Positions 18,104 to 64,000 of a stretch of 64,000 bases of DNA are shown here, in pieces (positions within the stretch are counted from its first letter, which is position 1; every line of letters begins with the position of its first letter). The notes under the pieces were generated by a model. It worked only from the letters and a program-made list of their open reading frames with translations. It ran no database searches and was not told the DNA's origin. Source of the DNA: an uncultured virus (IMG/VR IMGVR_UViG_3300036760_000988). Its lineage: Duplodnaviria; Heunggongvirae; Uroviricota; Caudoviricetes. Position numbers and translations under genes: made by a program. The DNA is taken from the IMG/VR virus record IMGVR_UViG_3300036760_000988, one strand, 5' to 3'.

Positions 18104-18236
18104 GCACCCCTCCAAAATTGCGAACCGCAACCCTCTGGCACCCGTCCGCTGAAAGAACCCGGCATCATTGCCGGAGGACTACCGCCGCTTGTCCGTAGCG
18201 ACTGCGGCCGGGTACCAGAGGGGTACGAACCTACAA

Positions 18237-35467: not shown

Positions 35468-35824
35468 GTGGTGCTGAGCGGACGAACCTTCGAGATCGAG
35501 GTGTTGCATTGGCTCCCCAAGGTCGCCGCCGATCACCCCTGTGCTGCGGAGCACGCGCACCCGTTCCGGGTGGAGATCTGCTGTGCGGATTACCCCGCGG
35601 AGAAGTTCGGCGCGGTGTGGTTGCCCCTGTACGCGACCCTGGATCGTCGACTACTCAACGAGATCGTGAAGCTGGAGGACCCGACGCCTGAGAGCCTGGC
35701 GCGGTTCCTGTTCGACGGGCTGCTGGCACAAGGCATGCCGGTGCAAACGGTGCGGGTCTACGACACGTTCGTCTACGAGACGCTCGCGGGTCCGGTCTCG
35801 AATGCTTGGTGTGAGGTGAGCTAG
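35468..35824 (+). CDS. queD: divergent QueD/PTPS-family protein
   Basis: LHWLPKV..DHPC...HAHPFRVEI...LD...LNEI..LEDPTPESLARF; start codon uncertain. Confidence 0.65.
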   Translation: MVLSGRTFEIEVLHWLPKVAADHPCAAEHAHPFRVEICCADYPAEKFGAVWLPLYATLDRRLLNEIVKLEDPTPESLARFLFDGLLAQGMPVQTVRVYDTFVYETLAGPVSNAWCEVS

Positions 35825-38040: not shown

Positions 38041-38077
38041 GTTGCGCAGCGCAACCGGCTTGCGGTAAGCTCCCTCC

Positions 38078-38992
38078 ATGTCCAACTTCTTTGCCGCGCT
38101 TCCTGTTCCCGCGGGCAACGGTGCAGGCGCCCCGGTCGATGTCTCTGCCGCGGGGAGCCTGAAGGCGCTCGTCATCGCGGGCGCGTTCGATGCCGCGCTC
38201 AACGTCGAGGTCTCCGAAGACGGGGTGACCTACGAGACCGCGGCGACGTACACCGGCCCGACGACCGCACTGCTCGATATGGCCGCCCAGTTCATGCGCG
38301 TGGTGATCTCGGGGTACGTGTCGGGCACGCCCGTGGTGGCGGTCGGCGCGATCGGGACGGGGGGTGCCTTCGCGGCGCTCGCAGTTCCGGCGGGGAACGG
38401 CGTCGGTGCCCCCACCAACGTCTCCGCCATGGGCATCCCCAAGACCCTCGTGGTGGGGGGCCCGTTCGAGGCGACGGTCACCATCGAGATCAGCGAGGAT
38501 GGGGTCACGTTTGGTGCGATCCCCGGCGTTCCGAGTTTCTCGGTGCCCGATCTCGTGACCACGCCGGTCATCGCCGCGTTCATGCGCGTGCGCGTGTCCG
38601 GCTACGTGTCCGGCACGCCGGTGGTCGCGGTGGGCGCGGTCGCGGATCTGGCGGCGGCCTTCGCGGCGTTCGTGGCGGCGACCAACGCGGCCTTCGCAGC
38701 GCTGGCGCTGCTCCCCCAGAACCGCTTCTCTGGCGCCTTCTCTGCCGCGAACCCGCCGGTGATCTTCGGCAGCACCAACGTGCTGGGGGTCGCACGGGTG
38801 ATCGCCGGGCAGTATCGCGTCAATGTCGCGGCGGTGCCCGGGGTCGTCCTGCCCAGCAGTGGTGGCGGCGCGGCCTTCGCCAACATCACCTGGGCCTTCG
38901 TCGATGGCGCGCACTTCGATTTGTTCGTCAAGGACGCCGCGGGTGTCTTGATCGAGCCTGGCAGTCCGGTCACGTTCCTGGGCGTGTCATAG
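38078..38992 (+). CDS. beta-rich virion protein with two internal repeats
   Basis: FAALPVPAGNG.GAP...EVSEDGVT...FMRV..SGYVSGTPVVAVGA occurs twice. Confidence 0.65.
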   Translation: MSNFFAALPVPAGNGAGAPVDVSAAGSLKALVIAGAFDAALNVEVSEDGVTYETAATYTGPTTALLDMAAQFMRVVISGYVSGTPVVAVGAIGTGGAFAALAVPAGNGVGAPTNVSAMGIPKTLVVGGPFEATVTIEISEDGVTFGAIPGVPSFSVPDLVTTPVIAAFMRVRVSGYVSGTPVVAVGAVADLAAAFAAFVAATNAAFAALALLPQNRFSGAFSAANPPVIFGSTNVLGVARVIAGQYRVNVAAVPGVVLPSSGGGAAFANITWAFVDGAHFDLFVKDAAGVLIEPGSPVTFLGVS

Positions 38993-41052: not shown

Positions 41053-42279
41053 TCATCGTCGTCGTCGCCGGGAAGCCTGTCGGGAAGGTCTCTTGAGCGT
41101 GGAACGCGGTCGTTCCTCGCGCTCAAGGCCCAGCCTTGGCCCCGACGCCGCCCGTGCGAGGGGGCGGAGTAGGCTTTCTTCGAGCCACGCGATAACGGGG
41201 ACGACAACGCCGTCGCCCATCAAGTGGTACGCTTCGTTGTAGTTGGCAGGAAGCACGTAGGTGTCAGGGACTCCCATCAACCGTGCAGCTTCTCTCGGCG
41301 AGAGCAGCCGCGTTCGCACGGATTCCCCGTCAACAATGATGATCGTCTGGCGGCTCGAACCGCCTCCTGGGGTACGCAGGCAACCACCGATCTGATCAAA
41401 GCGCACTTCCGCTCGTTGCACCTTCCTCCCACCCTCATCGAGCCGCGTCCGACGGTAGATCGTTCCGACGACCCTACGACCGAAGCGACGGAGTTCTTCA
41501 ACTCTTTTTCGATGCATCGGTGACATCATCGCCAGAACCTTCTTGGTCTCGTGGGCGGTGTGCCACGCAACTCCTACCGGCTCGTTCTCAATGACATCGG
41601 AGAGCGCGAGTGGACGCTTTGGAGGTCGCGGCATCCTCCACCAGATCCATCGCTCAGCGACATCACTAGGCAGGCGATCATGGGCTTGGCGAAGCGCTCG
41701 CGGGTGCCACTCGTCGTCGCATGCCTCGGCAATTAGCCTCTCGGGCACGGCGAGACCTTCATGGACAGCGACAACGAACAGCCGTGGGCGGGACTGCGGT
41801 ACGAACATCGCCGCGTCCATCACGAGCGCTCCGATGCGATAGCCCGCAGAGGTCAGCCTTGTCGCAAGAGCGACGAAGTCTTGCCCTTCGTTTGCTGTCA
41901 GCGCGCCAACGACGTTCTCCAACACGACAATTGGCGGTGGTCGCTTGTCGTCCCGAAGCCCCTCGGCCAGCTTCCAAAACGGCCAGAATGCTCCACTCCG
42001 CTTGGCTTGTAGCCCGCCCCTCGCTCCGGCAAGGGACAGGTCTTGGCACGGGAACGAACCCCACACGAGCGTCGGACGGCCAGGGAGATCCGCGACTGCG
42101 AGCGAAGCTACATCGCCTTCGACGAGATGCTCCGACGATCCGAAGTTCTCGCGGTACGAACGGGCCTTCTTGGGGCAGATGTCGTTAGCGAAGATGCAGT
42201 CCCAGGCTCCCCCAAGCCCGAGACGCGCCATTCCGCCACCCGCAAAGAATTCGTAGAAGCCGAAACGTCGGGTCGCCAT
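41053..42279 (-). CDS. C5 cytosine DNA methyltransferase (orphan)
   Basis: FFAGGG, SFPCQDLS, LENV, QSRPR, REAARLMG and GDGV motifs; lower GC. Confidence 0.92.
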   Translation of the reverse strand: MATRRFGFYEFFAGGGMARLGLGGAWDCIFANDICPKKARSYRENFGSSEHLVEGDVASLAVADLPGRPTLVWGSFPCQDLSLAGARGGLQAKRSGAFWPFWKLAEGLRDDKRPPPIVVLENVVGALTANEGQDFVALATRLTSAGYRIGALVMDAAMFVPQSRPRLFVVAVHEGLAVPERLIAEACDDEWHPRALRQAHDRLPSDVAERWIWWRMPRPPKRPLALSDVIENEPVGVAWHTAHETKKVLAMMSPMHRKRVEELRRFGRRVVGTIYRRTRLDEGGRKVQRAEVRFDQIGGCLRTPGGGSSRQTIIIVDGESVRTRLLSPREAARLMGVPDTYVLPANYNEAYHLMGDGVVVPVIAWLEESLLRPLARAASGPRLGLEREERPRSTLKRPSRQASRRRRR

Positions 42280-43709
42280 TTAGCTCTCCATAACGCGAGG
42301 AAGAGCCAGCACCCGAAGGCTTGGCCCTTGCGCTTGTGAGGCGCCCTTGCTGCATTGCCAGGTCTAAAAAGACCTGGACGAGCGCCGGCAGGTAGCAGCC
42401 GGGGCGGCGCTGCGGCGAGAAGCGGGCCTCGATGTGGTTCGCGGGCCACCCGCAGTGGGGGCACCATGCTAGATCTGGGCCGACGTGCTCCTGACAGCCA
42501 GGACAAGTGCCGGGGAAGTTGCTCATTATCGTACCGTTCCAAAAAGGACGCAGCCCGAAAGGTGCGGGGCCGCGGCGACCTCATTGTCGATCGCGAAGAT
42601 GCCGCCCGCCTCCCCCGCCGCGGCCAGCTCGCGCGCGACCTCGGGCAAGCCGCAGCGTTCGCAGCCGCCGGCCTTCCACACGTGGGGGCACTGGATCTGC
42701 GCCAGGCGTCCGATCGACCAGTCGGCGAGGTGGTGCAGGCAGTCGCCGCACGTGATCTCGGTGGGGTTGGTGGTCCAGTCCCGTTGGAGCAGCTCCTTGT
42801 GCATGGTCAGCTCGCGGGCGGGTACTTGCGCGCCGCAAGCCGGCGTGAGGGGGGCTTCGGGGTGGGTCCAGTGGATGAGGCTCATTCGAAGCCCTCGTTG
42901 TTGCGGTAGTCGTGCAGCCGGCCGATCCAGCCGCACGTGCAGGCCAGGCCCCAGTGATCGCCCGGGATCCAAATGACGTTGCAGCCGCACATTGGGCACC
43001 ACTCCGGCCGGATACCAGGACCGGGTTTATCCGGCTCGGCCACGGTCTGCACGCCGCCGTCGAAGCCGCACGCGTTGCACACGAACTCGAAATCGCCCGA
43101 GCCGTGTCCCTGGGTGGAGAAGTGCGCCAGTCCGCGCGGGTGCGCGAAATGTTCCCCACACATTGGGCAGCAGACGGGCAGCTTCTTGAAGGATCCGGTG
43201 CTCATTTTCCACCCCTCCGATCTGGCTGCCATGCGTTCAAGACCCCCGTGGCGATCACTAGCAAGGGGTCCTCCGGCGCCCGCGCGACGATGGCCTTCAG
43301 CGCCGCCTCGTAGGCGTGCATCTCGTCGCGCAGGGTCGCGGTCTCCGCGAACAGGCGCTGGCGCAGGTGCGCGAAGCCCTTCACGTGCTCGGGGGACTTC
43401 CCCCAGTCCTTCCCGAAGCAGGAGTCGCACACGTCCAAGGCCAAGCGCGTGCACACGTCGTAGAGATCCATCGCGGGCATCAGCACACCGCCTTGTTGGC
43501 CTTGAGGGTTGCCGCACACGCCGCCGAGCAAACGAGCCAGGTCTTCCCCTGCCCCGTGATCAGCACGTTCACCGACTCCACCACCGTGACCCACTCCGCG
43601 GGCAAGGGGTGTAACAAGGCACTCCCACGAGGGAGCGTCACCTTGGCGGGACACACGGGGTTGCCACAGGTGATGAGCACCGACTGCCCGTCTTTAGAAA
43701 ATAGGAGAC

Positions 43710-52258: not shown

Positions 52259-53037
52259 TCCGGCTTGGTCTCCACCCCGTCGATCACGAACACCGCTTCC
52301 TTGTCCGTGCCGTCGGTCGGCATCATCGGGGCGCCGATGATCACACCACCCGTCTTGATCTCCGGCCGCAGCGGCACGTCCACGCGCACCAAGTTCGGCT
52401 TGCGCACGACCGCGGCCTTGCCGAGCGTCGTCCAGTCGAGGCAGTGCTCTAGCGCCCAGTCGGCGAAGGTGTGCTGGATGTTGTCCGGCCCCTGGAAGTC
52501 ATCAGCGACCAAGAAGCCGCCGGGGGCGAGCGCGTCGAGCGCGAAGGACAGCTCGAAGCGCAGGTTCTCCGGGCCGTGCTCGGAGTCGTGGACGAACAGA
52601 TCCCAGCCTCGCGGATGCAGCTTCTTCGTCTCGGCCAGGATCAGCGGCAGCTCGCGCCGCGAGGGGCCGCTCTTGAAGTGCCAGTACTCCTCGTACGCGC
52701 CCGGCCACTGGCGCTCCCAGATCTCCCTCATCCGGCACAGCGCGTGGGTCTCGTCGCGGTAGCAGGGATCGCAGGAGTAGAGCTGCCCGGCGCCGCGCGT
52801 CAGGAGCCCCTGCAGGAGGTACATGGTGGAGATGCCGGTCCGCACCCCGGTCTCGACCGCCACGAAGTCCTCGTGGTCGTTCGCGAGCACGAGCCCGAGC
52901 AGGAACTCCTGGAAGTGCAGCCCCACCTCGGCGTGCCGCGGCTGGTAGAAGCGCGTGGCGTCCGCGCGCATAGCGGCCACGAGGTGCGGGGGGAACAGGG
53001 TGGCGAGGTAGTCCCAGTCTTTGGCGTCGAGGCGCAT
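52255..53037 (-). CDS. class I SAM methyltransferase (Methyltransf_24-like)
   Basis: VETGVRTGIST, DLFVHDSEH and LAPGGFLVADD. Confidence 0.85.
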   Translation of the reverse strand: MRLDAKDWDYLATLFPPHLVAAMRADATRFYQPRHAEVGLHFQEFLLGLVLANDHEDFVAVETGVRTGISTMYLLQGLLTRGAGQLYSCDPCYRDETHALCRMREIWERQWPGAYEEYWHFKSGPSRRELPLILAETKKLHPRGWDLFVHDSEHGPENLRFELSFALDALAPGGFLVADDFQGPDNIQHTFADWALEHCLDWTTLGKAAVVRKPNLVRVDVPLRPEIKTGGVIIGAPMMPTDGTDKEAVFVIDGVETKPE

Positions 53038-53055
53038 TGTGGTGCTCCTTACAGT

Positions 53056-53628
53056 TTAGCGGGTGCTCGGGTACAGGAGGCGACGGAATAAGAATTCGAG
53101 CGCGTCGGGGGTGGGCGGGACCGTCACCAGATGGTCGCTACGGCCGATGAGCTGCCCCAGGAAGGCCGTTTGCTTGGGGGACAGCCCAATCACGGCCTGG
53201 TAGTCCTTGAGGGCCTGGCGCTCCTCGTGCTGGGGCATGATCACCTGCCCGTTGCGCTTCTCGAAGCCGACCAAGGCCACGTTGGGCACGCCGATGGTGT
53301 AGAGCCGGCAGAGATCGAAGGCCGCGGGTAGCTCGGCGTCGCCGTCTCCCAGGGGGAGCTTCCTGGCGGGTTGCCAGCTGCCGATCGCGGCGGCGACGAA
53401 GTTCACGTAGGTGCCGTTGGTCGAGCCGGTGAACAGGTGTGAATACCGCCCGTAGCGGGACTCGGGGCGGAGATCGGCGTTCTGCGAGTTGGCGAGACAC
53501 AGAAGCGGGAGCGCGGTTTGTGTTAGTGCTGTTAGATAGTCGAAGGCGAGGTCCGCGAACGTGCGGACGGTGCCCGCCGGGGCCATGGGTAGAAAGAAGC
53601 GTACGTCGGCCGAACCCCGCATGTACAT
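53056..53628 (-). CDS. hypothetical protein resembling the N-terminal half of the neighbouring glycosyltransferase
   Basis: VRFF...LAFDYLTAL parallels VRYY...ACHDYLLAL of 51083-52258. Confidence 0.45.
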   Translation of the reverse strand: MYMRGSADVRFFLPMAPAGTVRTFADLAFDYLTALTQTALPLLCLANSQNADLRPESRYGRYSHLFTGSTNGTYVNFVAAAIGSWQPARKLPLGDGDAELPAAFDLCRLYTIGVPNVALVGFEKRNGQVIMPQHEERQALKDYQAVIGLSPKQTAFLGQLIGRSDHLVTVPPTPDALEFLFRRLLYPSTR

Positions 53629-53737
53629 AGGGTTCTAACGGACGGGGTGGGGGAAGGTCAATACCTATCTAACCGGGCGCTTGCGCGCCACAACTGGAGC
53701 GGGCGGCTGCGCGATCAGATCAACGGGAAACGACGTG

Positions 53738-54076
53738 CTAGTGGAACTCGACGTAGATCTCCAGGTCGCCGGTCGGATTGAAGCTGCTGTTGTTGGTGAC
53801 CGTGATCAGGAAGTCGGCGAGGCTGCTGCCGCTCTTGATCGCGACTACGGAGGGTGTGGTGACATCCGAGATGACGGCATTCGCGTTGATCTGCACCTGC
53901 ACCGCGTCCTGCAACGAGACGGTCGCGTAGATCCCCCACTCCGGGGTGCTGAGATCGATGTCACCCGTGCCGCCGTCGAGGCCGATGGTGCCGACCGCGG
54001 CAGGATCCAAGGACACTTCGGTGATGCGGTACAGGCGATCAGAGATCTTCTTGACGACGGGCGTGCCGGTGAACAT
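53738..54076 (-). CDS. small beta-rich putative virion protein
   Basis: AAGGAG RBS; beta-strand pattern. Confidence 0.55.
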   Translation of the reverse strand: MFTGTPVVKKISDRLYRITEVSLDPAAVGTIGLDGGTGDIDLSTPEWGIYATVSLQDAVQVQINANAVISDVTTPSVVAIKSGSSLADFLITVTNNSSFNPTGDLEIYVEFH

Positions 54077-54085
54077 GTGGTCTCC

Positions 54086-54247
54086 TTAGCGGTGGACGAC
54101 CCGGACCTTGCCGGGGCGGATCAAGTACAGCCAGCCCGCGAACAGCGCCAGCGCGCCGACCACGAGCGAGGGGGTGGCGAAGTCGCCCAGCGAGGGGTGC
54201 ACGTAGTTGCCACGCCGCGCCACGTCATCAGACTTGAGGTAGGCCAT
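54086..54247 (-). CDS. small membrane protein (53 aa, not in the ORF track)
   Basis: MAYLKSDDVARRGNYVHPSLGDFATPSLVVGALALFAGWLYLIRPGKVRVVHR; AAGGAG RBS. Confidence 0.65.
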   Translation of the reverse strand: MAYLKSDDVARRGNYVHPSLGDFATPSLVVGALALFAGWLYLIRPGKVRVVHR

Positions 54248-54400
54248 CGTCTTCGGCTCCTTCGGGGGTGGCGCGGTATTCGCACGCCAAGCACGTGACT
54301 ACGATCTCGCCGTCGGGCTTGGTTTGAAAGACCCGCAAGGTGTTGCACGCGGGGCAAGGCCCCGCGGTCTCACCCTTGTCATTGTAGACGAACCCGCTGC

Positions 54401-54610
54401 TCATCGTTTCACCAACAGCGACGCCAGGAGTCCCGCCGCGCCCGCGAACCGCGCCGTGCGCGACGACAGCCCCACGAGCGACGCGGCGCCCATCGCCATG
54501 AGGCCCCAGCGCAAGTCGAGCTTGGCTTTGGTAGGTACTGCCCCCGCCGCCTCGTCACCCACGGCCATGAGCGTGGTCACCGAGTGCGGCCGGGACGGGG
54601 CGTAGGACAT
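54401..54610 (-). CDS. small membrane protein
   Basis: MSY start and hydrophobic C-terminal half. Confidence 0.6.
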   Translation of the reverse strand: MSYAPSRPHSVTTLMAVGDEAAGAVPTKAKLDLRWGLMAMGAASLVGLSSRTARFAGAAGLLASLLVKR

Positions 54611-54626
54611 CGCGACCGCGGGCATG

Positions 54627-55334
54627 CTAGGAGTCTACCTCGGAGGGCTTGCGCGTCGCAAGCTGGCCCCAGAGCATGAACAGCTCTAGTGGCGGGACAT
54701 CTTGATGGGCCCTACGGCGATCAAACGAACTTCCTGTCAGGGTGTCAACGCGGATTGCGTTTAGACGATCGATCGAGGTCGAGAGCCGGAAGGGTAGTAT
54801 CAGTGGCCCGAACCAAAATTCCCGAATGAGCATCTGACTTTTCTCGGGGGAGGGTGCGATGTGATTGAGACTGTTGAAAGCGCGTACCGCATCGCGATCG
54901 GTGTTGAAGACAAGCTCTCCCGAGAAGCTGCTGTTGTAGTTGCTCGTATGGCTGCGCGTCACGTTGTACCGCGTTGGACGTGGGGACATCTGCCAGTAGA
55001 GCCAGCGCACAGGATCGATCGGCGTAGAGTAGCGCCCGCCATGCGCGCCCTTGCCGACCCGCCGCACCAGGAAGGTGCCGGGACGCCGGCTCGTGCCATA
55101 GGCGGCGAGCACGCCATGATCCACGAGCCAGTCGGACATGACCTGATGCTCGGCGTCACCGGCGAATAGCGCTTCGAGGACGACCTCGATCGCGAGGAGA
55201 TCGAACAACTCCGCGCGATTCTCGTCGAGGGTGCTGTAGCTCAGCTCGAAGCCCCAAGGTCCGACCTGACCGCGCATGAGCGAGTCCTGCGGGAAGACGA
55301 ACTCCGCGTCGCCGATTTTGCGTCGGATCTCCAT
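54627..55334 (-). CDS. hypothetical protein
   Basis: Open frame adjacent to neighbours; lower GC in the 3' half. Confidence 0.55.
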   Translation of the reverse strand: MEIRRKIGDAEFVFPQDSLMRGQVGPWGFELSYSTLDENRAELFDLLAIEVVLEALFAGDAEHQVMSDWLVDHGVLAAYGTSRRPGTFLVRRVGKGAHGGRYSTPIDPVRWLYWQMSPRPTRYNVTRSHTSNYNSSFSGELVFNTDRDAVRAFNSLNHIAPSPEKSQMLIREFWFGPLILPFRLSTSIDRLNAIRVDTLTGSSFDRRRAHQDVPPLELFMLWGQLATRKPSEVDS

Positions 55335-56642
55335 TCAGCGTGGACAGCAGAAGCCGCAATGCCCCTCGGCGTTGCGGCGCCGCGGGTTCTCTCGCGGAGG
55401 GAGCCCGCGCAGCCGCTGCAGCGCCGGCTTCAGATCCTCCACCGTTTCGGGATCGATCCCGAGCGTCTCGACCAACTCGATGACCTTCTTCACCTCGTCC
55501 GTCTTCAGCGCGTAATCGAAGCCGACCTTGCCGAGGTCCCAGCCGGGCAGGCGATTGGCCTTGCCCTTGATCTGCACGATCTCGTTGATGAGGCGCCCCG
55601 GCCCCACGAGCGCCTCGATGGTGAATAGCGGCTTCCCGCTCGGCCGGCGCAGGGACAAGATCTTGGTGCGCCCGGCGCGCACCTCTTGGGCGTAGCGGTA
55701 ACGCGGATCACCGACGCACATGCCCATGGCCTTCGACTCGGCGGGCAGCTCCTCGGGGGTCAAATCCAGGACGAAAAACTTGTCGGGGAACGTGTGGAGC
55801 ACGCGCGCCTCGGGGGGGAGGGCGACGACCTCCTCCGCCTCGTCCGCCAGCGCGTCGATGCCCAGGGTCTGGGCGACCGCGGCCGAGAGCTTCTCCCAGT
55901 CGGGGTTCGCGTCGGACCAATAGGTCACGTAGCCGTCGATCTCCAGCGCGTACTTCTGCTGCTCCAGATCTTCCGGCTTGAGGGAGAGGTAGGTCGCGTG
56001 GTTGATCTCCGCGAGCGCCACCGCGATCTCATCGGGGTGCATGTGCTCGGTCAGCGCGTCGATCTCGTCGGCCTCGATATAGAAGCTCTGGTTGCTGGAG
56101 GTCTTCAGGAAGGCTTCACCGTACTCGTTGGTGCCGTAGGTGAAGTCCCAGTTGTTGTTGTCCTGCATCGCCTCCAGGAGCGCGGCCTCGATCTCGGCGT
56201 CATCGGATTGCGGCCGGAACTCGTTGAAGATCTCGGCGACGTGATCTTGATCGCGGTACGAGCGCCGCGCCATGTCCACGAAGTCGTCGGCGTACTCTCC
56301 GAACTCGTTGTCCCAGTCGTCGTCGAATTGATTGCTCAGATACTGCTCGTCCGGCTCCTCCAACCACTTGTGCCGACTGACGAACGCCTCTACGAGTTGG
56401 TCGATCCGCGCCTTGCTCGCCGGGTCGTGCTCGTGGATGTACTCCTGCAGGTGTTCATCCAAGTGTGCGAACTCCGCGTCATCGAAAGCATCACGAGGGA
56501 GCTGCTTGATCTCGGCCTCGCTCATGCCCCGCACGTCGGTCACGATCGCCGACTCGCCACCGAATAGGTCGGGGTGCAGGCCCACGCGGGGATTGCGCCG
56601 CGCAAGATCACTGGGCCGATCACTATGGAAGTGCTTCTTCAT
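55335..56642 (-). CDS. acidic protein with C-terminal PcfJ-like domain
   Basis: EL..ES..MGMCVG...Y...ILSLR...P..TIE...QIKGKAN. Confidence 0.65.
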   Translation of the reverse strand: MKKHFHSDRPSDLARRNPRVGLHPDLFGGESAIVTDVRGMSEAEIKQLPRDAFDDAEFAHLDEHLQEYIHEHDPASKARIDQLVEAFVSRHKWLEEPDEQYLSNQFDDDWDNEFGEYADDFVDMARRSYRDQDHVAEIFNEFRPQSDDAEIEAALLEAMQDNNNWDFTYGTNEYGEAFLKTSSNQSFYIEADEIDALTEHMHPDEIAVALAEINHATYLSLKPEDLEQQKYALEIDGYVTYWSDANPDWEKLSAAVAQTLGIDALADEAEEVVALPPEARVLHTFPDKFFVLDLTPEELPAESKAMGMCVGDPRYRYAQEVRAGRTKILSLRRPSGKPLFTIEALVGPGRLINEIVQIKGKANRLPGWDLGKVGFDYALKTDEVKKVIELVETLGIDPETVEDLKPALQRLRGLPPRENPRRRNAEGHCGFCCPR

Positions 56643-57013
56643 TACCGCTTCTTGCGCTTGAAGAACCACCACGCGAGGCCCGCGAGCAGGAGCAGCTTGG
56701 GCGCGGTCGGGGTGAGCACCCCCGCGAGCCCGTTCAGGTAGAGCGTGCCGCCCCCCTCGGTCATGCCCCCCAGCGCGGACGGCCAGCAGTACTGGCCGTT
56801 GGCGTCGCGGTAGACCCCGACGGTGTTCCCGGGCGGCGGTTGAGCACTACAAAAAATGCGCTCGCCGCCCCCGTAGTACCCCGGGTCGTAGAGGGGGCCG
56901 GCGTAGAAGCCGCCGCGCCCGCCACCGCCGTGGTGACCGCCGTGACCCCCGTGGTGGCCGCCGTGGTGTCCGCCGCCCGCGAGCGCGCGGTACTGTGGCT
57001 TGTGATAGCTCAT
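56642..57013 (-). CDS. Gly/His-rich virion membrane protein
   Basis: GGAGG RBS; MSY start; C-terminal LLLLAGLAWWFFKRKKR. Confidence 0.7.
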   Translation of the reverse strand: MSYHKPQYRALAGGGHHGGHHGGHGGHHGGGGRGGFYAGPLYDPGYYGGGERIFCSAQPPPGNTVGVYRDANGQYCWPSALGGMTEGGGTLYLNGLAGVLTPTAPKLLLLAGLAWWFFKRKKR

Positions 57014-57501
57014 CGCCGACCTCCTCGTCCGGGCGCGGGTGTGCGCCCCATCAAGCGTTGCATGGGCCCGCCCGGGGGATGTTGTTTGGGCCGCAGCTCG
57101 GGCCCTTCGTCCAGCTCGCCGGGCCGCGTGTGGACGGGCCGCCGCGCGCCGAGCGCTGTGGGAGACCGCGCTTCGATCTCGCCGGCCAGGATTTCGCTGG
57201 CGCCACGGGGGGTGAAGGTCCCCGTGTACGCGTCGGCCATGTCGAAGTCGTAGCCCGCGAGCTGCGCCACCAAGGACAAGAGCCCGATGGTATCTGGCCC
57301 ACCGCGGTCACCTTGATCGAAGACCCGGAGCCATTCCGAGGTCGGGACCGACATCACCGTGATGTCGGAAGGACGCCCCTCCATCTCGAAGCGGATATCG
57401 TGTCCCCGCATGATCCCCCAGTTGATCTTGCCGCGCTCGCCAAAGAGCAGCCGGGTCAGCTGGTCGACGGCGACGATGAGGTTCTGGCGCTGACTGATCA
57501 T
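57010..57501 (-). CDS. hypothetical protein
   Basis: AAGGAG RBS before MISQRQ. Confidence 0.6.
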   Translation of the reverse strand: MISQRQNLIVAVDQLTRLLFGERGKINWGIMRGHDIRFEMEGRPSDITVMSVPTSEWLRVFDQGDRGGPDTIGLLSLVAQLAGYDFDMADAYTGTFTPRGASEILAGEIEARSPTALGARRPVHTRPGELDEGPELRPKQHPPGGPMQRLMGRTPAPGRGGRR

Positions 57502-57512
57502 ACCTGCTCCTT

Positions 57513-58010
57513 CTATACGTCCCGGGCGATCCCGTGATCGATCGCGACCCGCCAGGGGCACAGCCCCAGGCCAAACTCCAGCCGGCCCGCGTTGGCGGCC
57601 GGCAGCTCCCAGGTGCAGCCGAACCGCTCCACCGACAGCCCGCGCACCGGGTCCCAGGACATGGCCTTCTGCGAGGACTTGATCGACAGCCCATGTGGCG
57701 CGGGCTTGGTCTCGCCCGTGCCCTCGCACGAGGGACACAGCGGGCGCTCCGCCTCGGTGCAGGTGCACGGCACGAGGTGCTTGGGCGTGCACACCGGGCA
57801 GATCAGGTGGAGCATGTACTCGCGCTTGGACCCTTCGCCAACGAGGTAGAGATCGCCCTCCAGTACGAAGTCGCCGTACTTGCCCGTGTAGCGGATCAAC
57901 GGGTGGGCGTACGCGCGCCGGGTGAGATCGTGGGTCAGCGAGAGCCCGTGGGTCTCGTCACCGGCGATCTGGAAGCACTCCTCATTTTGCTTGATCGGTA
58001 GGTTGGGCAT
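57513..58010 (-). CDS. Cys-rich hypothetical protein
   Basis: CPVC, CTC and CPSC motifs. Confidence 0.55.
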   Translation of the reverse strand: MPNLPIKQNEECFQIAGDETHGLSLTHDLTRRAYAHPLIRYTGKYGDFVLEGDLYLVGEGSKREYMLHLICPVCTPKHLVPCTCTEAERPLCPSCEGTGETKPAPHGLSIKSSQKAMSWDPVRGLSVERFGCTWELPAANAGRLEFGLGLCPWRVAIDHGIARDV

Positions 58011-58088
58011 GGGCTTCAGTCTATCAATTTCGTCGGTACCCGGGTGAGCGATCGTGTTGTGCGGGCGTCCCCGCCCACACGTCACGGG

Positions 58089-58526
58089 TCACCGCCTGCG
58101 CTTGCGCGTCGCAACTCGCTGCTTGCGCTTGAGGAACCACCACAGCGCCCCTGCGCCACCCGCGAGCAGGAGCCACTTGGTCATGCTGCCACCGACGCCC
58201 GCCGTGAGCGCGCCACCACCCCCCTCGATCTGCGGCGCGACCTTCTCGAAGGTGGCCTGCGCGGCGGCGGCATGTTGCGCAACGGCCGCCTGCTGCGCGG
58301 GCGTCGCGGGGGGATGCACCGTGTTCGGGTTGAGCGCGGCGTTGATCCCTTGTGGGGTCAAGACCAGTGCCAGGATCTGCTGCGTCCGTGCCGCCCCGTA
58401 TTTCTTGATCAACTCGGGGATGATCGCATCGCGCTGTGCCGGGTTGAGCAGCGCCCGCGTGATCGTCGCGATCTGCTGCGCGGTGAGCCCGAGCGCCATT
58501 GACAGTGGCGAGCCAAAGAGCGGCAT
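58089..58526 (-). CDS. virion membrane protein
   Basis: C-terminal WLLLAGGAGALWWFLKRK...RKRRR. Confidence 0.7.
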   Translation of the reverse strand: MPLFGSPLSMALGLTAQQIATITRALLNPAQRDAIIPELIKKYGAARTQQILALVLTPQGINAALNPNTVHPPATPAQQAAVAQHAAAAQATFEKVAPQIEGGGGALTAGVGGSMTKWLLLAGGAGALWWFLKRKQRVATRKRRR

Positions 58527-59314
58527 TACCGTCGCCTCCGCGGATTCCGTTTTTTGCGGAAGAACAAGAAGTACCCGGCGCCCAGGCCGCCCAGGATCAA
58601 GAGCCAGGGCGTCTTCTTCGTTGGTACTGTCGCCTTCGCGGGACCCACGGTCGCGGTCGCGGTCTCGGTCTCCACGACCGGGCCGCCGCCTCCACCTGCG
58701 TCCGGCAGAGGGGCAACGCCCGCGTCTTCGCTCTCCGCGCCCCAGGGCTGCTCGTCGGCGGGTAGTTCACTCGATGCGCCTCCCCCGCCCGCGCCGGGGC
58801 TCCAGGCGCCGCCGCCACCCCCGCCGCTCGAACCGCCACCGCCGCTGCCCGTGCCCGTGCCCGTGCCCGTCCCCGGAGGGGGCGGAGGCGGTGAGGTCAT
58901 GCTCGTGACGATGGCACGCTTCTTCAGTCCCGGCACGGTCACGATCGTGGTACGTCGACCCCCCGCGGGGGCGTTGCCGCGCGCGGGGGTCGTACCGCGT
59001 GCAGGTGGAGGCGCGGCGGTGAGCTGCGTGTACTTGCGCTCGCCCAGGCGCAGGAGCGCGTCGAGCTTCGAGACTAGGTAGTCGCCGCGCATCTTCGTGG
59101 TCGGCGCCGACGGTTGCCCGGTCTGCTGGGCGACGATGTTCCACTGGTTGCGCGTCGCCACCGGCAAGGTGATCTGTCGGTCCTTGAGGGGCTGTGCGGG
59201 GGCGGTGACCATGGTTCGCCACGCCGCGAGAGCGTTGAGCAGCCCCCGCAGGAGCGCGGCCGGGGTCGCGGGACCACCGCCAAACAGCCCACCACCGATC
59301 GCGATGTAGCTCAT
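58526..59314 (-). CDS. low-complexity virion membrane protein
   Basis: MSY start, Pro/Gly linker, C-terminal TM segment plus RKKRNPRRRR. Confidence 0.7.
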   Translation of the reverse strand: MSYIAIGGGLFGGGPATPAALLRGLLNALAAWRTMVTAPAQPLKDRQITLPVATRNQWNIVAQQTGQPSAPTTKMRGDYLVSKLDALLRLGERKYTQLTAAPPPARGTTPARGNAPAGGRRTTIVTVPGLKKRAIVTSMTSPPPPPPGTGTGTGTGSGGGGSSGGGGGGAWSPGAGGGGASSELPADEQPWGAESEDAGVAPLPDAGGGGGPVVETETATATVGPAKATVPTKKTPWLLILGGLGAGYFLFFRKKRNPRRRR

Positions 59315-59673
59315 CGTGCTCTCCTTCTGGTTTTGCCGAACAAGTACCCCAAGACGAAGGGTCCGCCCAAGATCCCCGCGACCATGGCAGGTAGCACCCA
59401 GGCGTGCTTGCGGCTGTACACGTACAGCCGCAAGGGCTTGACCACGCGCTGGAGTCCCACGCCCGCCGCCGCGGGTTGCCCCGGCACGGTTGGTTCGGCC
59501 TTCGTGAGCCCCCGCAGCTCCAAGACCAGCCGGGTGACCTCGGGCAGCGCCGGGTCGAGCAAGATCGAGCCCGCGGCCTGTACGGCGGTAGACCCACGCT
59601 GCACGAGCGCCGTCACCCCCCCTGCAAGGGGGGTGACGCGTGGTCGCCGGGCGTAGGTGGTCAAGTAGCTCAT
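59311..59673 (-). CDS. virion membrane protein
   Basis: MSYLTTY start; C-terminal TM segment plus basic tail. Confidence 0.65.
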   Translation of the reverse strand: MSYLTTYARRPRVTPLAGGVTALVQRGSTAVQAAGSILLDPALPEVTRLVLELRGLTKAEPTVPGQPAAAGVGLQRVVKPLRLYVYSRKHAWVLPAMVAGILGGPFVLGYLFGKTRRRAR

Positions 59674-59793
59674 GGCTGCGGGGTCATCATGATGTAGGAA
59701 GTAGCGCCCTCCAGCAGCGTCGCAGCCGGCGCCGCCAGCTCTCCGGTAGTTCTGGCTAAGTTGGGCCACGACGCTGCGGGAAGGCGTTACCTG

Positions 59794-60375
59794 TTATCTC
59801 CTCCGTGCCCGCACCAGGGTGGTAGGTTTGCCCTTGCTCTTGAGGAAGTCGAGCCAGGTCGTCTTGTGCCAGGCGTACAGGGCCGCCGCGCCGACGACGC
59901 CCGCCTTCAGCCAGAAGCCTGTGTCCGTGCACGCGCCGGCCTTGATGCAGGCGTAGTGCTCGCGCTCCTTGGCCACGTCCGCCCAGGATGAGATGGTCTG
60001 GAACAAGAGCAGCCCGCCGACGAGCAGCCCCAGGAGCAGCGGGTTCGTGAAGAAGGCCCCGACGCCGGCCTGGGCCTGTGGGCTCCCTGCGTCGGGCAGG
60101 GTGAGCGCCAGCCGGGCGAGCGCGGGAGCATCGGTGGGGAGGGTGGCGCCTGCCGGCATGACCTGACGGAGCAGCATGTCCAGCTGCGTGGCCAAGACCG
60201 CCTCCACCTCGGGATCACGGTACTGATCGCGCGCGAGCTGCGCCGACGCCGCGCCATACTTCGCAGGGCCGGTGCCAGCCACCGCCGCGTCGACGCGCGT
60301 GCGATAGTCGAGCCACTGCCGCAGCGACCGCTGCATCCGCGCCAGTTCCTTGCGTGCCGCCTTCACGTCCGCCAT
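59794..60375 (-). CDS. virion membrane protein (two TM segments)
   Basis: GGAGG RBS; LLLGLLVGGLLLF and FWLKAGVVGAAALYAW. Confidence 0.7.
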   Translation of the reverse strand: MADVKAARKELARMQRSLRQWLDYRTRVDAAVAGTGPAKYGAASAQLARDQYRDPEVEAVLATQLDMLLRQVMPAGATLPTDAPALARLALTLPDAGSPQAQAGVGAFFTNPLLLGLLVGGLLLFQTISSWADVAKEREHYACIKAGACTDTGFWLKAGVVGAAALYAWHKTTWLDFLKSKGKPTTLVRARRR

Positions 60376-60399
60376 GGACCACCCTCCGCCTACGTCGAA

Positions 60400-61044
60400 C
60401 TACATGTTGACGATGCGGTAGCCGGGGAGCGCGATGACGAGCTTGCCGTCGGTGGTGGGCGTCCCCGCGGACGAGAAGTCGATGTCCTCGTACGTCGGGA
60501 AGATCTGCATCACCGTGTTCGGCGTGAACAGGGACGGCACCGGCAGCGGGATCAGGTTGTCGGGTCGCGAGAGCAGCCCCGCGGGCACCGCGAGGTTCTG
60601 CTCGGCGCGCTGCGAGCCGCCGTCGAAGAACTCGTAGGAGAGGTCGATGATGTCGTCGTCGAGCACCTGATCGGGCAGCGGCCAGTGCGCGACCGGCCGC
60701 CACATGCCGAGCCGCGTCGCGGCCGGGGCCGGCGCCGAGGGCTTCCACATGGCGAGCGGGTAGTGGGTCATGACGAACGGTCCGTCCTGCGACACGAGGT
60801 AGTTCATCGCGTCGGCCCGCGCCCCGAGCTGGGCGATCGAGAACGCCTGCACCTGCGACAGGGTGTAGAAGATGCGTCGCCCTGGGATGGCGTCGATCTC
60901 CTCGGTCACCGTCCGCGGGCGCGTCTGGAACGCCTGCTTCAGCGCGGACAGCTCGCGCTTGGTGTTCAGGATCTCGTTCTTGAACGGGGTGATGAGTTGA
61001 CGGATGAATTGCGCGAGTTCGTTCGAGACGGGCTGCATGATCAC
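60400..61044 (-). CDS. putative second (large) single-jelly-roll capsid protein with N-terminal coiled coil
   Basis: Helical N-terminus then an all-beta domain (DGGSQR..QN..VP...PLPVPSLFTPN...LVIALPGYR); AAGGAG RBS; position in the structural operon. Confidence 0.55.
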   Translation of the reverse strand: MIMQPVSNELAQFIRQLITPFKNEILNTKRELSALKQAFQTRPRTVTEEIDAIPGRRIFYTLSQVQAFSIAQLGARADAMNYLVSQDGPFVMTHYPLAMWKPSAPAPAATRLGMWRPVAHWPLPDQVLDDDIIDLSYEFFDGGSQRAEQNLAVPAGLLSRPDNLIPLPVPSLFTPNTVMQIFPTYEDIDFSSAGTPTTDGKLVIALPGYRIVNM

Positions 61045-61143
61045 CGCTCCTTAACCCAGAGGTTGGGGTGCCCGAGGGCACGTTGGAAAATTGCGCGTTG
61101 CAAGGACTGCCAGGCAGGAATTGCGTGGTGCGAAAGTTGGGAG

Positions 61144-61797
61144 CTACTTACGTGGCCGAACTCCTTCGCGTGTCAGCGAGGGGGTTTTTACAGCGTCTTC
61201 TTCAGACCACCCCCGAGACAGTCGATTTGAGATCGTACTTTCGGGAAGCTTGTACTTCTCGGCCCACTCGGCAAGACAGCGAGCTTCGCCGTTGATGGTG
61301 AGCAAGCGAGAGGATCTGCGATTTCGTGCCTGCTCCTTGTCGGTGGCCCAGCGAATGTTCCCAGGCATGTAGTCGCCGGTGTTGTCGATGCGATCGATCG
61401 ACTGTCCCCGGGGACGTGGGCCCAAGTGCTCGTTCACGTAGGCGGCGAACACCTCGAAATCGTGCAACCACGGCGCGTGGATGTGGATGTCGGGGTACCA
61501 CGTACGCTGCCCCGTCTCGATGGGGCGACAGCGATCCTTGATCGAGACCCAGGTGCGATAGAGTGGGGTCCGCGATTGACCGTGCGTGGTGGCAACACGG
61601 CGCATGTTGTCCACCGCCAAGCAGCCGCACGATTTCGCATGACCAATCATGAGATTGGTCTCGCGCACCCACTTTTCCTTCCCACAGTCGCACTTGACGT
61701 GTACCCACCAAAATTTCTGTTTTTCGTTTTCGCCCTGCCGCTGCTCTCGTCCGAGAGCTGTCAGCCGACCGAATCGATCTCCGATTACGACACTCAT
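61144..61797 (-). CDS. HNH homing endonuclease
   Basis: CDCG, KSCGC and SIDRIDNTGDYMPGNIRWAT..EQARN. Confidence 0.88.
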   Translation of the reverse strand: MSVVIGDRFGRLTALGREQRQGENEKQKFWWVHVKCDCGKEKWVRETNLMIGHAKSCGCLAVDNMRRVATTHGQSRTPLYRTWVSIKDRCRPIETGQRTWYPDIHIHAPWLHDFEVFAAYVNEHLGPRPRGQSIDRIDNTGDYMPGNIRWATDKEQARNRRSSRLLTINGEARCLAEWAEKYKLPESTISNRLSRGWSEEDAVKTPSLTREGVRPRK

Positions 61798-61828
61798 GGG
61801 AGCCTCCTGCGTAGGAGGCTCCCATGAG
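61793..61828 (-). promoter_or_regulatory. RBS/start-codon sequestering hairpin
   Basis: Perfect 16-bp stem CTCATGGGAGCCTCCT-N4-AGGAGGCTCCCATGAG containing the AGGAGG and ATG of the HNH gene. Confidence 0.85.
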
Positions 61829-61925
61829 CCTATTCGATTGTCAACTACTACGACGGGATAACTTCCAACAGGGGCGGTCCATCACAAACATGATTACCTT
61901 TCCCTGTCGGTCATTATCAGGTTTG

Positions 61926-62501
61926 TTACTGGACGTCTCTCGTCTGGAGACCGTCGATCACAAACATGATAACTTTCTCGTCGTCAGTGGCCCCCGTGTT
62001 GAGGAGGGTGAGCGCGTTCACGGAGCCGACCGTGAAGAACTGCGCCTCGACGGCGAAGTTCTGGCGGACGGGCACCATGATCGGGCGGGCCAGCTTCAGG
62101 ATCGACTCCTGGGTGGGCTCACCCAGGTTGAAGATCGACGTGGTGGCGTCGAAGCCCCACACGCCGCCGCCCGACGGGTAGTACCAGCACGGCGCCTGGA
62201 ACGCCGGCTTGTCGCCCAGGGACAGCGTGAAGTACAGCTGCGACGTGACCCGCAGGTAGTTGTTCCGGCGGTTGGTGCCGTTGAAGTACAGCCAGCACCG
62301 CAGCGCCAGGATGATGTACGTCTGGTCGCTCGCGAGCTGACCCGCCACCTGCAGGTTGGTCAGCGCGAGATTCCCGACGTTGGCGTTGCCGAACAGTCGC
62401 TGGGACGACTGGATGGTGGGCGTCGGATCGCCCGTGGTGCGGATCAGCGTATCCCAGAACGGCTGGTGCCGTCTTTCCTTCACTCCGTGCAGACGCGGCA
62501 T
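61926..62501 (-). CDS. putative major capsid protein (single jelly roll)
   Basis: 191 aa, all-beta pattern (QPFWDT, TNLQVAGQL, YIILALR, PIMVPVRQNFAVE, MFVIDG); GGAG RBS with AT-rich leader; flanked by membrane proteins. Confidence 0.65.
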   Translation of the reverse strand: MPRLHGVKERRHQPFWDTLIRTTGDPTPTIQSSQRLFGNANVGNLALTNLQVAGQLASDQTYIILALRCWLYFNGTNRRNNYLRVTSQLYFTLSLGDKPAFQAPCWYYPSGGGVWGFDATTSIFNLGEPTQESILKLARPIMVPVRQNFAVEAQFFTVGSVNALTLLNTGATDDEKVIMFVIDGLQTRDVQ

Positions 62502-62620
62502 GTTGTTTTCTCCACTGTTTTTAGTTTCGTCCCGAGCCATCTCGGGGCAGGAGGGGTGGCTTCCCCACCGGAGATCACAGCATTGAGGGTTTGCAGAAAC
62601 AGAGTTTGCGAACCGCAAAT

Positions 62621-62845
62621 TTACGAATACAGCCTTTGGTACTTCCTGCGACGACGCCGGATCTCGGCGCCGATCTTCACCTTCGCGTGCGCGATGCGGG
62701 CGTGCCGCACGATCTTCTTCCGTCGCTTGACCAGCTGCCAGGCCACGAGCCCTCCACCCAACCACACCCACCACGGCGTGCCCGTGAGGACCCCCGAGAG
62801 GGGGTGTGGTTGGGCGGCGGGCACCGTGGGCTGGACGTAGGACAT
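62621..62845 (-). CDS. small virion membrane protein
   Basis: MSY start, PWWVWLGGG TM segment and a very basic tail. Confidence 0.7.
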   Translation of the reverse strand: MSYVQPTVPAAQPHPLSGVLTGTPWWVWLGGGLVAWQLVKRRKKIVRHARIAHAKVKIGAEIRRRRRKYQRLYS

Positions 62846-63057
62846 CAGCGGCTCTTGCCGTACGTCTGGTGCATCTGCTGCCGCTCTGTTGGCGTCAAGC
62901 GCAGTGCGTAGTTCTTGTCGTACCAGCGCCAGGCGAAGTAGCCCCCCGCCAGCCACGCCCACCACGGCAGATCAGGAACCAACCCCCCCAGCGCACTGAG
63001 GGGTTGCGGTGGCGTGGCGAGCGAGGTGCCCGGCACTCTGGTGTTGACGTAGGACAT
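62845..63057 (-). CDS. small virion membrane protein (paralogue of 62621-62845)
   Basis: MSY start; PWWAWLAGG TM segment. Confidence 0.7.
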   Translation of the reverse strand: MSYVNTRVPGTSLATPPQPLSALGGLVPDLPWWAWLAGGYFAWRWYDKNYALRLTPTERQQMHQTYGKSR

Positions 63058-63058
63058 A

Positions 63059-64000
63059 CTACCCGAGCGAACCCATCCCACCGGCGAAGATGCCGGTGTA
63101 GACCTGCGCGCGGGCGTCACGCTGTGGTGACCAGTTCGGGATCTGCTTCACGAAGTTCTTCGAGGGCACCGGCGCGAGCATGGACCGCTGCGCGACCGGG
63201 GCGAGCTGCGTGTTCGCGCCGCCCAGCTCCTGCTGCAGCGCGCCCAGCTCCTCCTCCATGCCGGACTGCGACATGTCGCCCAGCTCCTCCTCGGCGCCGG
63301 TCTCGATGTAGTCGCCCATGCCGGTCTCCATGTACTCGCCGGTCTCCATGTACTCGCCCATCTCCTGCTGGAGGGCGCCGAGGGCGTTGTCGTACACGCC
63401 ACTGTCGCCGATGGCCAGGTACTGCTGGATCGACGCGGGCGCGTACGTCTTGACCACGGACATCAGCATGTTGATGCCGAGGCCCGCGAGGATGCCCTGC
63501 CGCCACTTGGCGAGCGGGCCTCGCTTGGTCGCGAAGTGCCCCGCGCCGACCATGAGCAGGGACAGCACCGGATCACGGTGCTGCCCGAGCTTGTCGAGGC
63601 CCGGGATCATCGGGCCCACCTTGTTGGTGATCAGGCGGCCGACGACCATGCCCCCCAGCACCGGCGCGGCGTGCTTGGCGACATCGCTGAGGAAGCCGAT
63701 CGCGCCCGCGGGGTTCCGCGTGTACAGGCTCTTGATCTTGCCGCGGCTGATCGTGCCGCCCTTGCGGCGCCGCGCGCGTCCACCGCGGATGCCGTAGGCC
63801 CGGCGTGCCGCCGTGCGGCCCGACACCCGACGACGCCGCGGCGCGGCCCGACGGCGCCCGCGCGTCGACCGGCGACGCCGCGGGGCGGCGCGACGGGCCG
63901 ACTTCCGCGAGCCCGACTTGCCGTACCGGCGCTTGCGCGTGCGCCACGCCTTCTTGCCGGCGGCCGAGCGGCTGCGCTTGCGCCCACGCCGCGGGGCGGC
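63059..64000 (-). CDS. Arg-rich (protamine-like) core/membrane protein, 5' end beyond the window
   Basis: Frame is open to the window edge: AAPRRGRKRSRSAAGKKAWRTRKRRYGKSG..., then TRNP, hydrophobic helices and an acidic (L/M)G repeat tail. Confidence 0.75.
   Translation of the reverse strand, partial: AAPRRGRKRSRSAAGKKAWRTRKRRYGKSGSRKSARRAAPRRRRSTRGRRRAAPRRRRVSGRTAARRAYGIRGGRARRRKGGTISRGKIKSLYTRNPAGAIGFLSDVAKHAAPVLGGMVVGRLITNKVGPMIPGLDKLGQHRDPVLSLLMVGAGHFATKRGPLAKWRQGILAGLGINMLMSVVKTYAPASIQQYLAIGDSGVYDNALGALQQEMGEYMETGEYMETGMGDYIETGAEEELGDMSQSGMEEELGALQQELGGANTQLAPVAQRSMLAPVPSKNFVKQIPNWSPQRDARAQVYTGIFAGGMGSLG

Follow-up and report, generated by a model that had tools for sequence, protein, structure and literature searches.

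What kind of particle is built by the late genes of the uncultured virus IMGVR_UViG_3300036760_000988 is the question raised by positions 53738-64000 of the DNA analysed here (64,000 nucleotides of an IMG/VR record, referred to as the window). An original prediction, made from the letters alone, had taken this region for part of an unusually large tailless relative of the Halopanivirales, whose genomes are of roughly 16-31 kb, with two single-jelly-roll capsid proteins. The analysis indicates that the late region is probably the virion operon of a tailless, icosahedral, membrane-containing double-stranded DNA (dsDNA) virus of bacteria with a genome of approximately 81 kb. The jelly-roll folds of two neighbouring gene products, together with the lack of tailed-phage hallmark genes, support the tailless jelly-roll part of the prediction, and the window's own contig of 81,303 bp bears out a genome well above the sizes known for viruses of this build. 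The proposed place among the Halopanivirales was not upheld.

The G+C content of the window is approximately 66% and its genes were therefore called by third-position G+C, with 117 open reading frames (ORFs) scanned against Pfam and PHROGs. Every gene from 64000 down to approximately 42500 lies on the minus strand. Conservation was assessed by tblastn of all window proteins at E = 1e-5 against ten related loci and a complete relative, G001, of 82,417 bp with a 127-bp terminal repeat confirmed here (n = 11). Approximately 17 kb of the window's contig lies outside the window and was judged from relatives only. G001 was scanned with PHROGs (26 + 87 ORFs) and Pfam (26 + 48 ORFs), leaving out ORFs of fewer than 60 amino acids (aa) and one of 104 aa.

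Two conserved putative capsid genes

The two neighbouring genes singled out as capsid candidates proved to be real and conserved, with a homing endonuclease gene lying between them:

61926-62501, minus strand: P0002, predicted single-jelly-roll capsid protein of 191 aa; the most conserved gene of the virus group
61144-61797, minus strand: HNH homing endonuclease (phrog_374, E = 8.4e-50), inserted between the P0002 and P0001 genes and not part of the virion
60400-61044, minus strand: P0001, 214 aa, N-terminal helical arm and predicted jelly roll; putative second capsid protein, co-capsomer or vertex protein

Homologs of P0002 number 674 (E <= 1e-3) among 741 metagenomic candidates; the best 120 of these 674 are 73-93% identical, 15 of them lying on contigs of 65-112 kb, and an exhaustive search of representatives yielded 288 clusters at 50% identity. 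P0001 has 666 metagenomic homologs, 52-68% identical among the matches listed. Homologs of P0002 were found in all 11 related loci (66-86% identity) and those of P0001 in 10 of the 11 (50-68%), with the gene order core protein, P0002, P0001, membrane proteins kept in relatives. The 66-86% identity of P0002 holds even in relatives sharing almost no other window gene, and tblastn shows extreme mosaicism around a putative capsid gene that hardly varies. The replication modules differ between the window and G001; in this pair P0002 is 86% identical, and the polymerase, helicases, primase and most other proteins have no counterpart (tblastn, E = 1e-5).

Neither protein was assigned to a family in Pfam or PHROGs, and megablast and tblastn against 50,697 GenBank phages gave no match. 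The P0002-family profile (A2) retrieved nothing from all PDB sequences at E up to 10, and at the same limit the P0001-family profile (A1) retrieved no capsid protein, its matches being YcnI (E = 0.02) and coiled-coil noise. The two proteins were considered as paralogs, with an hhalign probability of 0.3%, so that their mutual similarity is unsupported. No second copy of P0002 occurs in the window; weak extra copies do occur in relatives. The P0001 ORF opens with GTG, giving 214 aa, and starts two codons later in the database copy.

The endonuclease is absent from the capsid-gene junction in G001, L002, L003, L005, L007 and L017, in all of which the two capsid genes lie next to each other. It is one of three paralogous phrog_374 HNH homing endonucleases in the window (20666-21283, 27491-28072 and 61144-61797), and in a further complete relative, G002 (83.5 kb), the P0002 homolog is itself interrupted (residues 1-46, then residues 19-191 approximately 740 bp further on) with a related HNH gene beside it. 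It seems that the frozen capsid gene is a target of homing elements. The start of P0002 is preceded by a 119-bp gap (62502-62620) with a terminator-like hairpin at 62619-62605 on the coding strand, an arrangement which may, to judge from the sequence, separate high expression of the capsid gene from that of the upstream genes.

Predicted folds of P0002 and P0001

AlphaFold2 models were built for P0001 and P0002 only, from alignments of 47 and 45 sequences. The P0002 model (predicted local distance difference test, pLDDT, 85.0; predicted template modelling score, pTM, 0.78) is a beta sandwich with two short helices, and that of P0001 (pLDDT 86.7; pTM 0.75) is an eight-strand beta sandwich preceded by a 34-residue N-terminal helix (residues 8-41), because of which the description of both proteins as all-beta fits P0002 and only part of P0001. 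Both models are confidently predicted eight-stranded jelly rolls. The Foldseek lists against PDB were full of jelly-roll capsid proteins, HHIV-2 ranking first and SH1 fourth for P0001, and both folds are therefore read as jelly rolls. HK97-fold, portal and terminase chains were not in the match lists of P0001 and P0002, which says nothing on other proteins.

Structural ranking was by re-alignment of Foldseek's best 1000 chains. For P0002, SPV1 scored 9.3, followed by P23-77 (7.5), HHIV-2 (7.0) and SH1 (6.7), and for P0001 SPV1 scored 7.8, followed by the SGIV capsid (7.4), SH1 (7.3), P23-77 (7.2 for VP17, and 7.1) and HHIV-2 and HCIV-1 (both 6.7), with PBCV-1 and SPV1 tying at 7.7 in a wide scan with P0001. 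The same SPV1 chain was the best match of both models, the margin being clear only for P0002 against SPV1. The models suggest that the nearest solved structures are upright single-jelly-roll capsid proteins of membrane-containing tailless viruses (SPV1, P23-77, SH1, HHIV-2). As such the expected likeness to P23-77 and SH1 was found in so far as the folds are jelly rolls and both viruses are among the near matches, but SPV1 came out best. A BFVD entry of 211 residues, I1ZBH9, the identity of which was not established, also matches P0002 (TM score 0.52, E = 2.7e-4).

Large insertions at predicted loops, or extensions of the N-terminus, occur in distant members of the P0002 family. In some a helical insertion of approximately 240 aa follows the fourth strand, in one a beta-solenoid-like insertion occupies the low-confidence loop, and in others 95-165 aa are added at the N-terminus. 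Nearly all of them (P0336, P0391, P0326, P0289, P0300, P0315, P0344) end in RDV(Q). On the models, the loop insertions would fit surface-exposed shell proteins.

In SPV1 one single-jelly-roll protein forms the hexamers and another the pentamers (PMC8459092), which bears on how P0002 and P0001 may share the shell. It is possible, if rather doubtful, that P0002 alone makes hexameric capsomers, like VP4, with P0001 forming pentameric vertices or a cement under the capsomers, like VP10, and not acting as a second major capsid protein of Halopanivirales-style heterohexamers. Such roles would agree with the single SPV1 chain that matches both models best, with the lower conservation of P0001 than P0002 in the same loci (50-68% versus 66-86%), with its variable N-terminal helical arm and with the spike-like genes that adjoin the P0001 homolog in L016 and L018. 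Third-position G+C in the P0002/P0001 pair is 0.91 and 0.96; that of P0001 ranks third of 63 ORFs of at least 100 aa and points the other way, in that it would weakly fit an abundant protein. Stoichiometry itself is not readable from sequence.

Tailed-phage and packaging genes

Pfam and PHROGs assigned none of the 117 ORFs of the window to a family of terminases, portals, HK97 capsids, tail tubes, sheaths or tape measures, in keeping with the prediction, and the scanned ORFs of G001 gave no such assignment either. The tail-category matches in the window are weak spike or fibre ones only, to two beta-helix proteins and a lipase. The search was extended beyond the window in five complete relatives standing in for its flanks, where six-frame hidden Markov model (HMM) searches detected TerL_ATPase (PF03354), Terminase_6N (PF03237), Phage_portal (PF04860) and Phage_capsid (PF05065) in none of the five, positive controls being found. 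The FtsK/HerA-type packaging ATPase to be sought in the flanks was not detected either, FtsK_SpoIIIE (PF01580) giving nothing over the cut-off in any of the five relatives (controls positive; one P-loop match at E = 0.01). All of these hallmark searches used sequence profiles only.

A canonical Walker A motif occurs in the window in the primase-helicase only, with none in the late operon, and in G001 in the Sak4-like, Dda-like and primase-helicase proteins and once within a peptidoglycan-binding protein. No packaging family was among the PHROG matches of the window or G001. One candidate for a packaging enzyme, the Sak4-like AAA_24 ATPase of G001, was provisionally set aside because of its place in a recombination module, where it is flanked by an exonuclease and a Dda helicase.

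These searches bear directly on whether the virus might be a very divergent tailed phage, in which the HK97 capsid, portal and terminase escape profiles, P0002 and P0001 are decoration, cement or fibre domains and the small membrane proteins serve in lysis or superinfection exclusion. This is considered unlikely. The five hallmark Pfam families gave nothing in five complete genomes in which controls were found, no PHROG head, packaging or tail-tube family was found in the window or G001, and Walker A motifs are, the peptidoglycan-binding protein apart, confined to replication and recombination proteins. In addition, a decoration protein would be an improbable single most conserved gene of a mosaic genome, and nine poly-arginine tail-anchored proteins and a protamine-like protein would be without a usual tailed-phage role.

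A number of observations nevertheless weigh against the tailless reading. Two beta-helix proteins of the window resemble tail spikes and match PHROG tail-spike families, G001 proteins match phrog_10356 ('virion structural protein'), the M23 peptidase of G001 matches tape-measure families, and related Atlas clusters carry the automatic label Uroviricota, all of which would suit a tailed phage. The fold models cover P0001 and P0002 and not the large proteins, and those of no known type in G001 (574, 456, 399, 375, 366 and 356 aa) may hide a divergent HK97 capsid, portal or terminase. Approximately 17 kb of the window's own contig is unread; the matching part of G001 contains early genes and genes for the coiled-coil 574-aa protein, for a transglutaminase-like protein and for further tail-anchored proteins. 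Neither fold model had a Foldseek match in PDB at E <= 1e-3, and the tailless reading is computational throughout. To our knowledge, there is no precedent for an 81-kb genome without any packaging ATPase.

Predicted membrane and core proteins of the late operon

The remaining late genes of 53738-64000 are as follows:

63059-64000, minus strand: arginine-rich, protamine-like core protein, C-terminal 313 aa in the window; 5' end open, the gene leaving the window
62845-63057, minus strand: 70-aa small membrane protein with MSY leader; begins MSYV, Trp/Gly-rich hydrophobic segment
62621-62845, minus strand: 74-aa small membrane protein with MSY leader; begins MSYV, PWWVWLGGGLVAW, then a 35-residue K/R-rich tail
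59794-60375, minus strand: 193-aa conserved membrane protein with two hydrophobic segments; ends RARRR; directly after the P0001 homolog in 5 of 11 loci
59311-59673, minus strand: 120-aa tail-anchored protein with MSY leader; ends KTRRRAR; homologs in 8 of 11 related loci
58526-59314, minus strand: 262-aa Gly/Pro-rich tail-anchored protein with MSY leader; ends RKKRNPRRRR
58089-58499, minus strand: 136-aa tail-anchored protein; ends KRKQRVATRKRRR
57513-58010, minus strand: 165-aa Cys-rich conserved late protein with conserved CPxC...CxWE motifs
57010-57501, minus strand: 163-aa late protein; no Pfam or PHROG family
56642-57013, minus strand: 123-aa His/Gly-rich tail-anchored protein with MSY leader; ends KRKKR
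55335-56585, minus strand: 416-aa acidic protein with a weak PcfJ-like domain; ends ...NPRRRN...; outside the conserved core
54627-55334, minus strand: 235-aa late protein; no Pfam or PHROG family
54401-54625, minus strand: 74-aa membrane protein with an internal MSY start
54086-54247, minus strand: 53-aa tail-anchored protein
53738-54076, minus strand: 112-aa protein, beta-rich by eye, candidate vertex protein; homolog in 1 of 11 related loci

The arginine-rich putative core protein of the prediction was confirmed at 63059-64000. R and K make up 39 of the first 82 residues that the window encodes, and hydrophobic segments and then an acidic GEYMETG repeat come after them. Its homologs lie directly upstream of the P0002 homolog in 9 of the 11 related loci, that of G001 having 413 aa with NPRRRR repeats. 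The same Asn-Pro plus poly-Arg unit ends two otherwise unrelated proteins of the window (58526-59314 and 55335-56585) and is repeated many times in the G001 core protein (G001 41466-42707).

The presence of a protamine-like protein encoded 2 kb from P0001, in an element with ParB and an integrase, could also suggest that neither protein is a capsid protein, with P0001 acting as a nucleoplasmin-like pentameric chaperone of the arginine-rich protein in a replicon that is plasmid-like or carried by vesicles. Such an arrangement appears very improbable, as P0001 has no acidic tract (21 D/E versus 17 R/K), capsid proteins align over a longer stretch (135 residues versus 89-94), terminal repeats and late operons of a viral type are found in related genomes, and P0002 would be left unexplained.

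Nine small membrane proteins with a basic tail were counted by eye in 53738-64000, close to the ten or so proteins with a transmembrane segment and basic tail that had been described. Downstream of the capsid genes these proteins have a Gly/Trp-rich hydrophobic segment towards the C-terminus and, after it, a K/R tail, and a strict automatic tail-anchor rule selected 4 of 18 late ORFs versus 4 of 94 elsewhere (Fisher p 0.02). An MSY start is found in five late ORFs and an internal one in a sixth (62845-63057, 62621-62845, 59311-59673, 58526-59314, 56642-57013 and 54401-54625), against 0 of 94 other ORFs, and in most of the six an L-x-G-G-like motif lies within approximately 10-25 residues of the MSY. 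From its sequence, the MSY leader could be a removable leader peptide. In relatives a transglutaminase-like protein is encoded upstream (L001 2436-2990, PF01841, E = 3.5e-6).

Homologs of the 165-aa Cys-rich protein were found in 5 of the 11 related loci at E = 1e-5 and in 7 of the 11 at a looser threshold. The 416-aa protein matches PF14284 at E = 1.7e-5 (25.1 bits, cut-off 25) and its G001 homolog sits outside the late operon. That the 112-aa product of 53738-54076 is a vertex protein is a guess.

Spike-like and second membrane-protein blocks

Spike proteins had been listed for the late region. None is recognisable in 53738-64000, but beta-helix proteins are encoded elsewhere in the window, as is a further set of tail-anchored proteins:

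35824-38992, plus strand: beta-helix spike-like protein (35824-38040; PF12708, E = 3.2e-9) and 304-aa protein (38078-38992)
31745-33802, plus strand: second pectate-lyase-like spike protein (PF12708, E = 1.7e-7; PHROG tail-spike families, E = 2.9e-7 and weaker)
9459-11808, plus strand: second block of tail-anchored proteins, among them a GDSL lipase (PF13472, E = 2.7e-10) that ends KRRR

In L016 and L018 the homologs of 35824-38040 and 38078-38992 sit between the P0002 and P0001 homologs, and this capsid-gene-flanked position ties the two spike-like products to the virion; they are probable vertex or host-recognition proteins. Within the second block, the GDSL lipase (11188-11808) and a 243-aa protein (9459-10190) have a tail anchor of the late-operon type and a KRRR or RRARRGR ending, and from these features both are probably enzymes anchored in the viral membrane. 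The matching block of G001 contains the M23 peptidase, the phrog_10356 match and a lipase.

Replication genes and other features

The replication-type gene set described earlier was recovered with Pfam and PHROGs, namely PolA, a primase-helicase, an SF2 helicase, a PD-(D/E)XK nuclease, ParB and an integrase, the RuvC-like match being weak (E = 1.3e-4). The family A DNA polymerase is split on the minus strand into 16808-18130, which covers the exonuclease and the N-terminal part, and 15361-16260, which covers the C-terminal part, with an EndoVII/HNH gene at 16254-16820 between the two ORFs, versus an undivided polymerase of 909 aa in G001. A tRNA scan found none, and a promoter scan of 53000-64000 found 0 sites versus 1.1 expected. 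Terminator-like sites in the same interval (9 versus 5.6 expected) were not informative.

Comparison with known viruses

In SPV1 a lipid membrane and a condensed nucleoprotein core are enclosed by an outer shell built from single-jelly-roll proteins (PMC8459092); the virus is without a genome-packaging ATPase and at the base of the two-capsid-protein branch (PMC8812541). The virus group described here resembles it in the single-jelly-roll folds (VP4/VP10 type) predicted in both models. Genes for numerous small membrane proteins, for a glycosyltransferase and for a methyltransferase are further points of likeness. As to core and packaging, an arginine-rich protein that may bind and condense the DNA heads the operon here, and no packaging ATPase was found. 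SPV1 (Portogloboviridae) differs in infecting hyperthermophilic archaea and in its circular genome of 20,222 bp with no replication genes of its own, whereas the present group is approximately four times larger, has a full replisome and is binned with bacterial genomes. No sequence similarity to SPV1 was found.

The cultured Salisaeta phage SSIP-1 is described as a membrane-containing tailless bacterial phage with two capsid protein types (PMC6356626, PMC4958249). Its genome (JN880423) is 43,788 bp, versus the 81,303-bp contig here, and its adjacent structural proteins gp45 (210 aa) and gp46 (211 aa) are followed by gp47 and gp48 and then by the tail-anchored proteins ORF50, ORF52, gp53 and ORF54. 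An operon layout of two adjacent capsid genes of approximately 200 aa, then tail-anchored membrane proteins, is thus common to SSIP-1 and the window, although the tail-anchored proteins of SSIP-1 lack the poly-arginine ends of those in the window. In sequence, tblastn gave no match to SSIP-1, HMMs gave E of 2 or worse and the best phmmer match was at E = 0.073. With hhalign the P0002-family profile matched gp46 plus one homolog weakly (E = 0.025, probability 1.9%, 153 collinear columns) and the P0001-family profile matched nothing in SSIP-1.

The Halopanivirales and other Helvetiavirae (SH1, HHIV-2, HCIV-1, SNJ1; P23-77, IN93) have two neighbouring genes for small upright jelly-roll capsid proteins, and the two window genes are alike in arrangement and predicted fold. 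They are characterised by an internal membrane, a conserved major membrane protein and vertex spikes varying between relatives, a build to which the predicted particle would be similar, and have an FtsK/HerA-type packaging ATPase in their core gene set (PMC5332951, and for the former features also PMC8812541). Neither this ATPase nor any sequence or profile similarity of the capsid proteins was found here, and their genomes are several times smaller; because of these differences the virus is not placed in the Halopanivirales, and SPV1 is the top structural match. The protamine-like core protein is a further difference, none being described for Halopanivirales in the text consulted.

PRD1-type viruses (Tectiviridae and other prokaryotic Bamfordvirae) are alike in having a tailless shell over a membrane with virion-associated lytic enzymes, and the nearest named Atlas clusters are the PRD1 P2/P3 families, with lead-level scores of 0.76-0.78. 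They differ in having one fused double-jelly-roll capsid protein and a packaging ATPase, versus two separate single jelly rolls here. The overall design looks closer to SPV1 or SSIP-1 than to the Halopanivirales.

For a tailless particle of this design, P0002, alone or with P0001, would form the pseudo-hexagonal capsomers of the outer shell, and the tail-anchored proteins would populate an inner lipid membrane with their Arg/Lys tails toward the DNA. The arginine-rich protein would condense the genome into a core around which the particle would close without a packaging motor, as proposed for SPV1, with the beta-helix proteins acting as vertex spikes. The MSY...L-x-G-G leaders would possibly be cut by the transglutaminase-like cysteine protease which relatives encode upstream of the part covered by the window.

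Distribution, host and significance

Five IMG/VR relatives span 79.9-104.3 kb; direct terminal repeats are present in every one of them, and four of the five are rated 100% complete. Species-representative genomes contain four P0002 loci, of which Gemmatimonadota bins account for three and a Kiloniellales bin for the fourth, and two of the four are on contigs of 80.6 and 69.2 kb that look like whole virus genomes and not prophages. A high-GC bacterium is a plausible host, the only hint being the Gemmatimonadota label of three of the four binned contigs. No published description of the group was located in the literature searched, subscription journals being mostly outside its coverage.

A tentative but serious possibility is that these genomes of approximately 80 kb belong to a high-rank lineage of bacterial viruses, widespread and so far undescribed, that would be the counterpart of SPV1 in bacteria, with large single-jelly-roll capsids over a membrane, a protamine-condensed genome and no packaging motor, in which the capsid gene is nearly frozen and the rest, replisomes included, is exchanged. 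Automatic pipelines seem to class such contigs as tailed phages. The group would stand structurally between SPV1 and the two-capsid-protein viruses and so bear on the debated origin of their capsids (PMC8812541). With a packaging ATPase missing and a protamine-like protein present, motor-free encapsidation of a large genome would become testable. The known prokaryotic jelly-roll and membrane viruses are small, PRD1-type double-jelly-roll phages having genomes of <20 kbp (PMC8812541), SPV1 20 kbp (PMC8459092) and SSIP-1 43.8 kb, and a common group of 80-104 kb with its own replisome would roughly double the genome range of such viruses. If true, the finding would contradict the rule by which large genomes of prokaryotic dsDNA viruses enter HK97 heads via terminase, and would show that large phage genomes need not be tailed.

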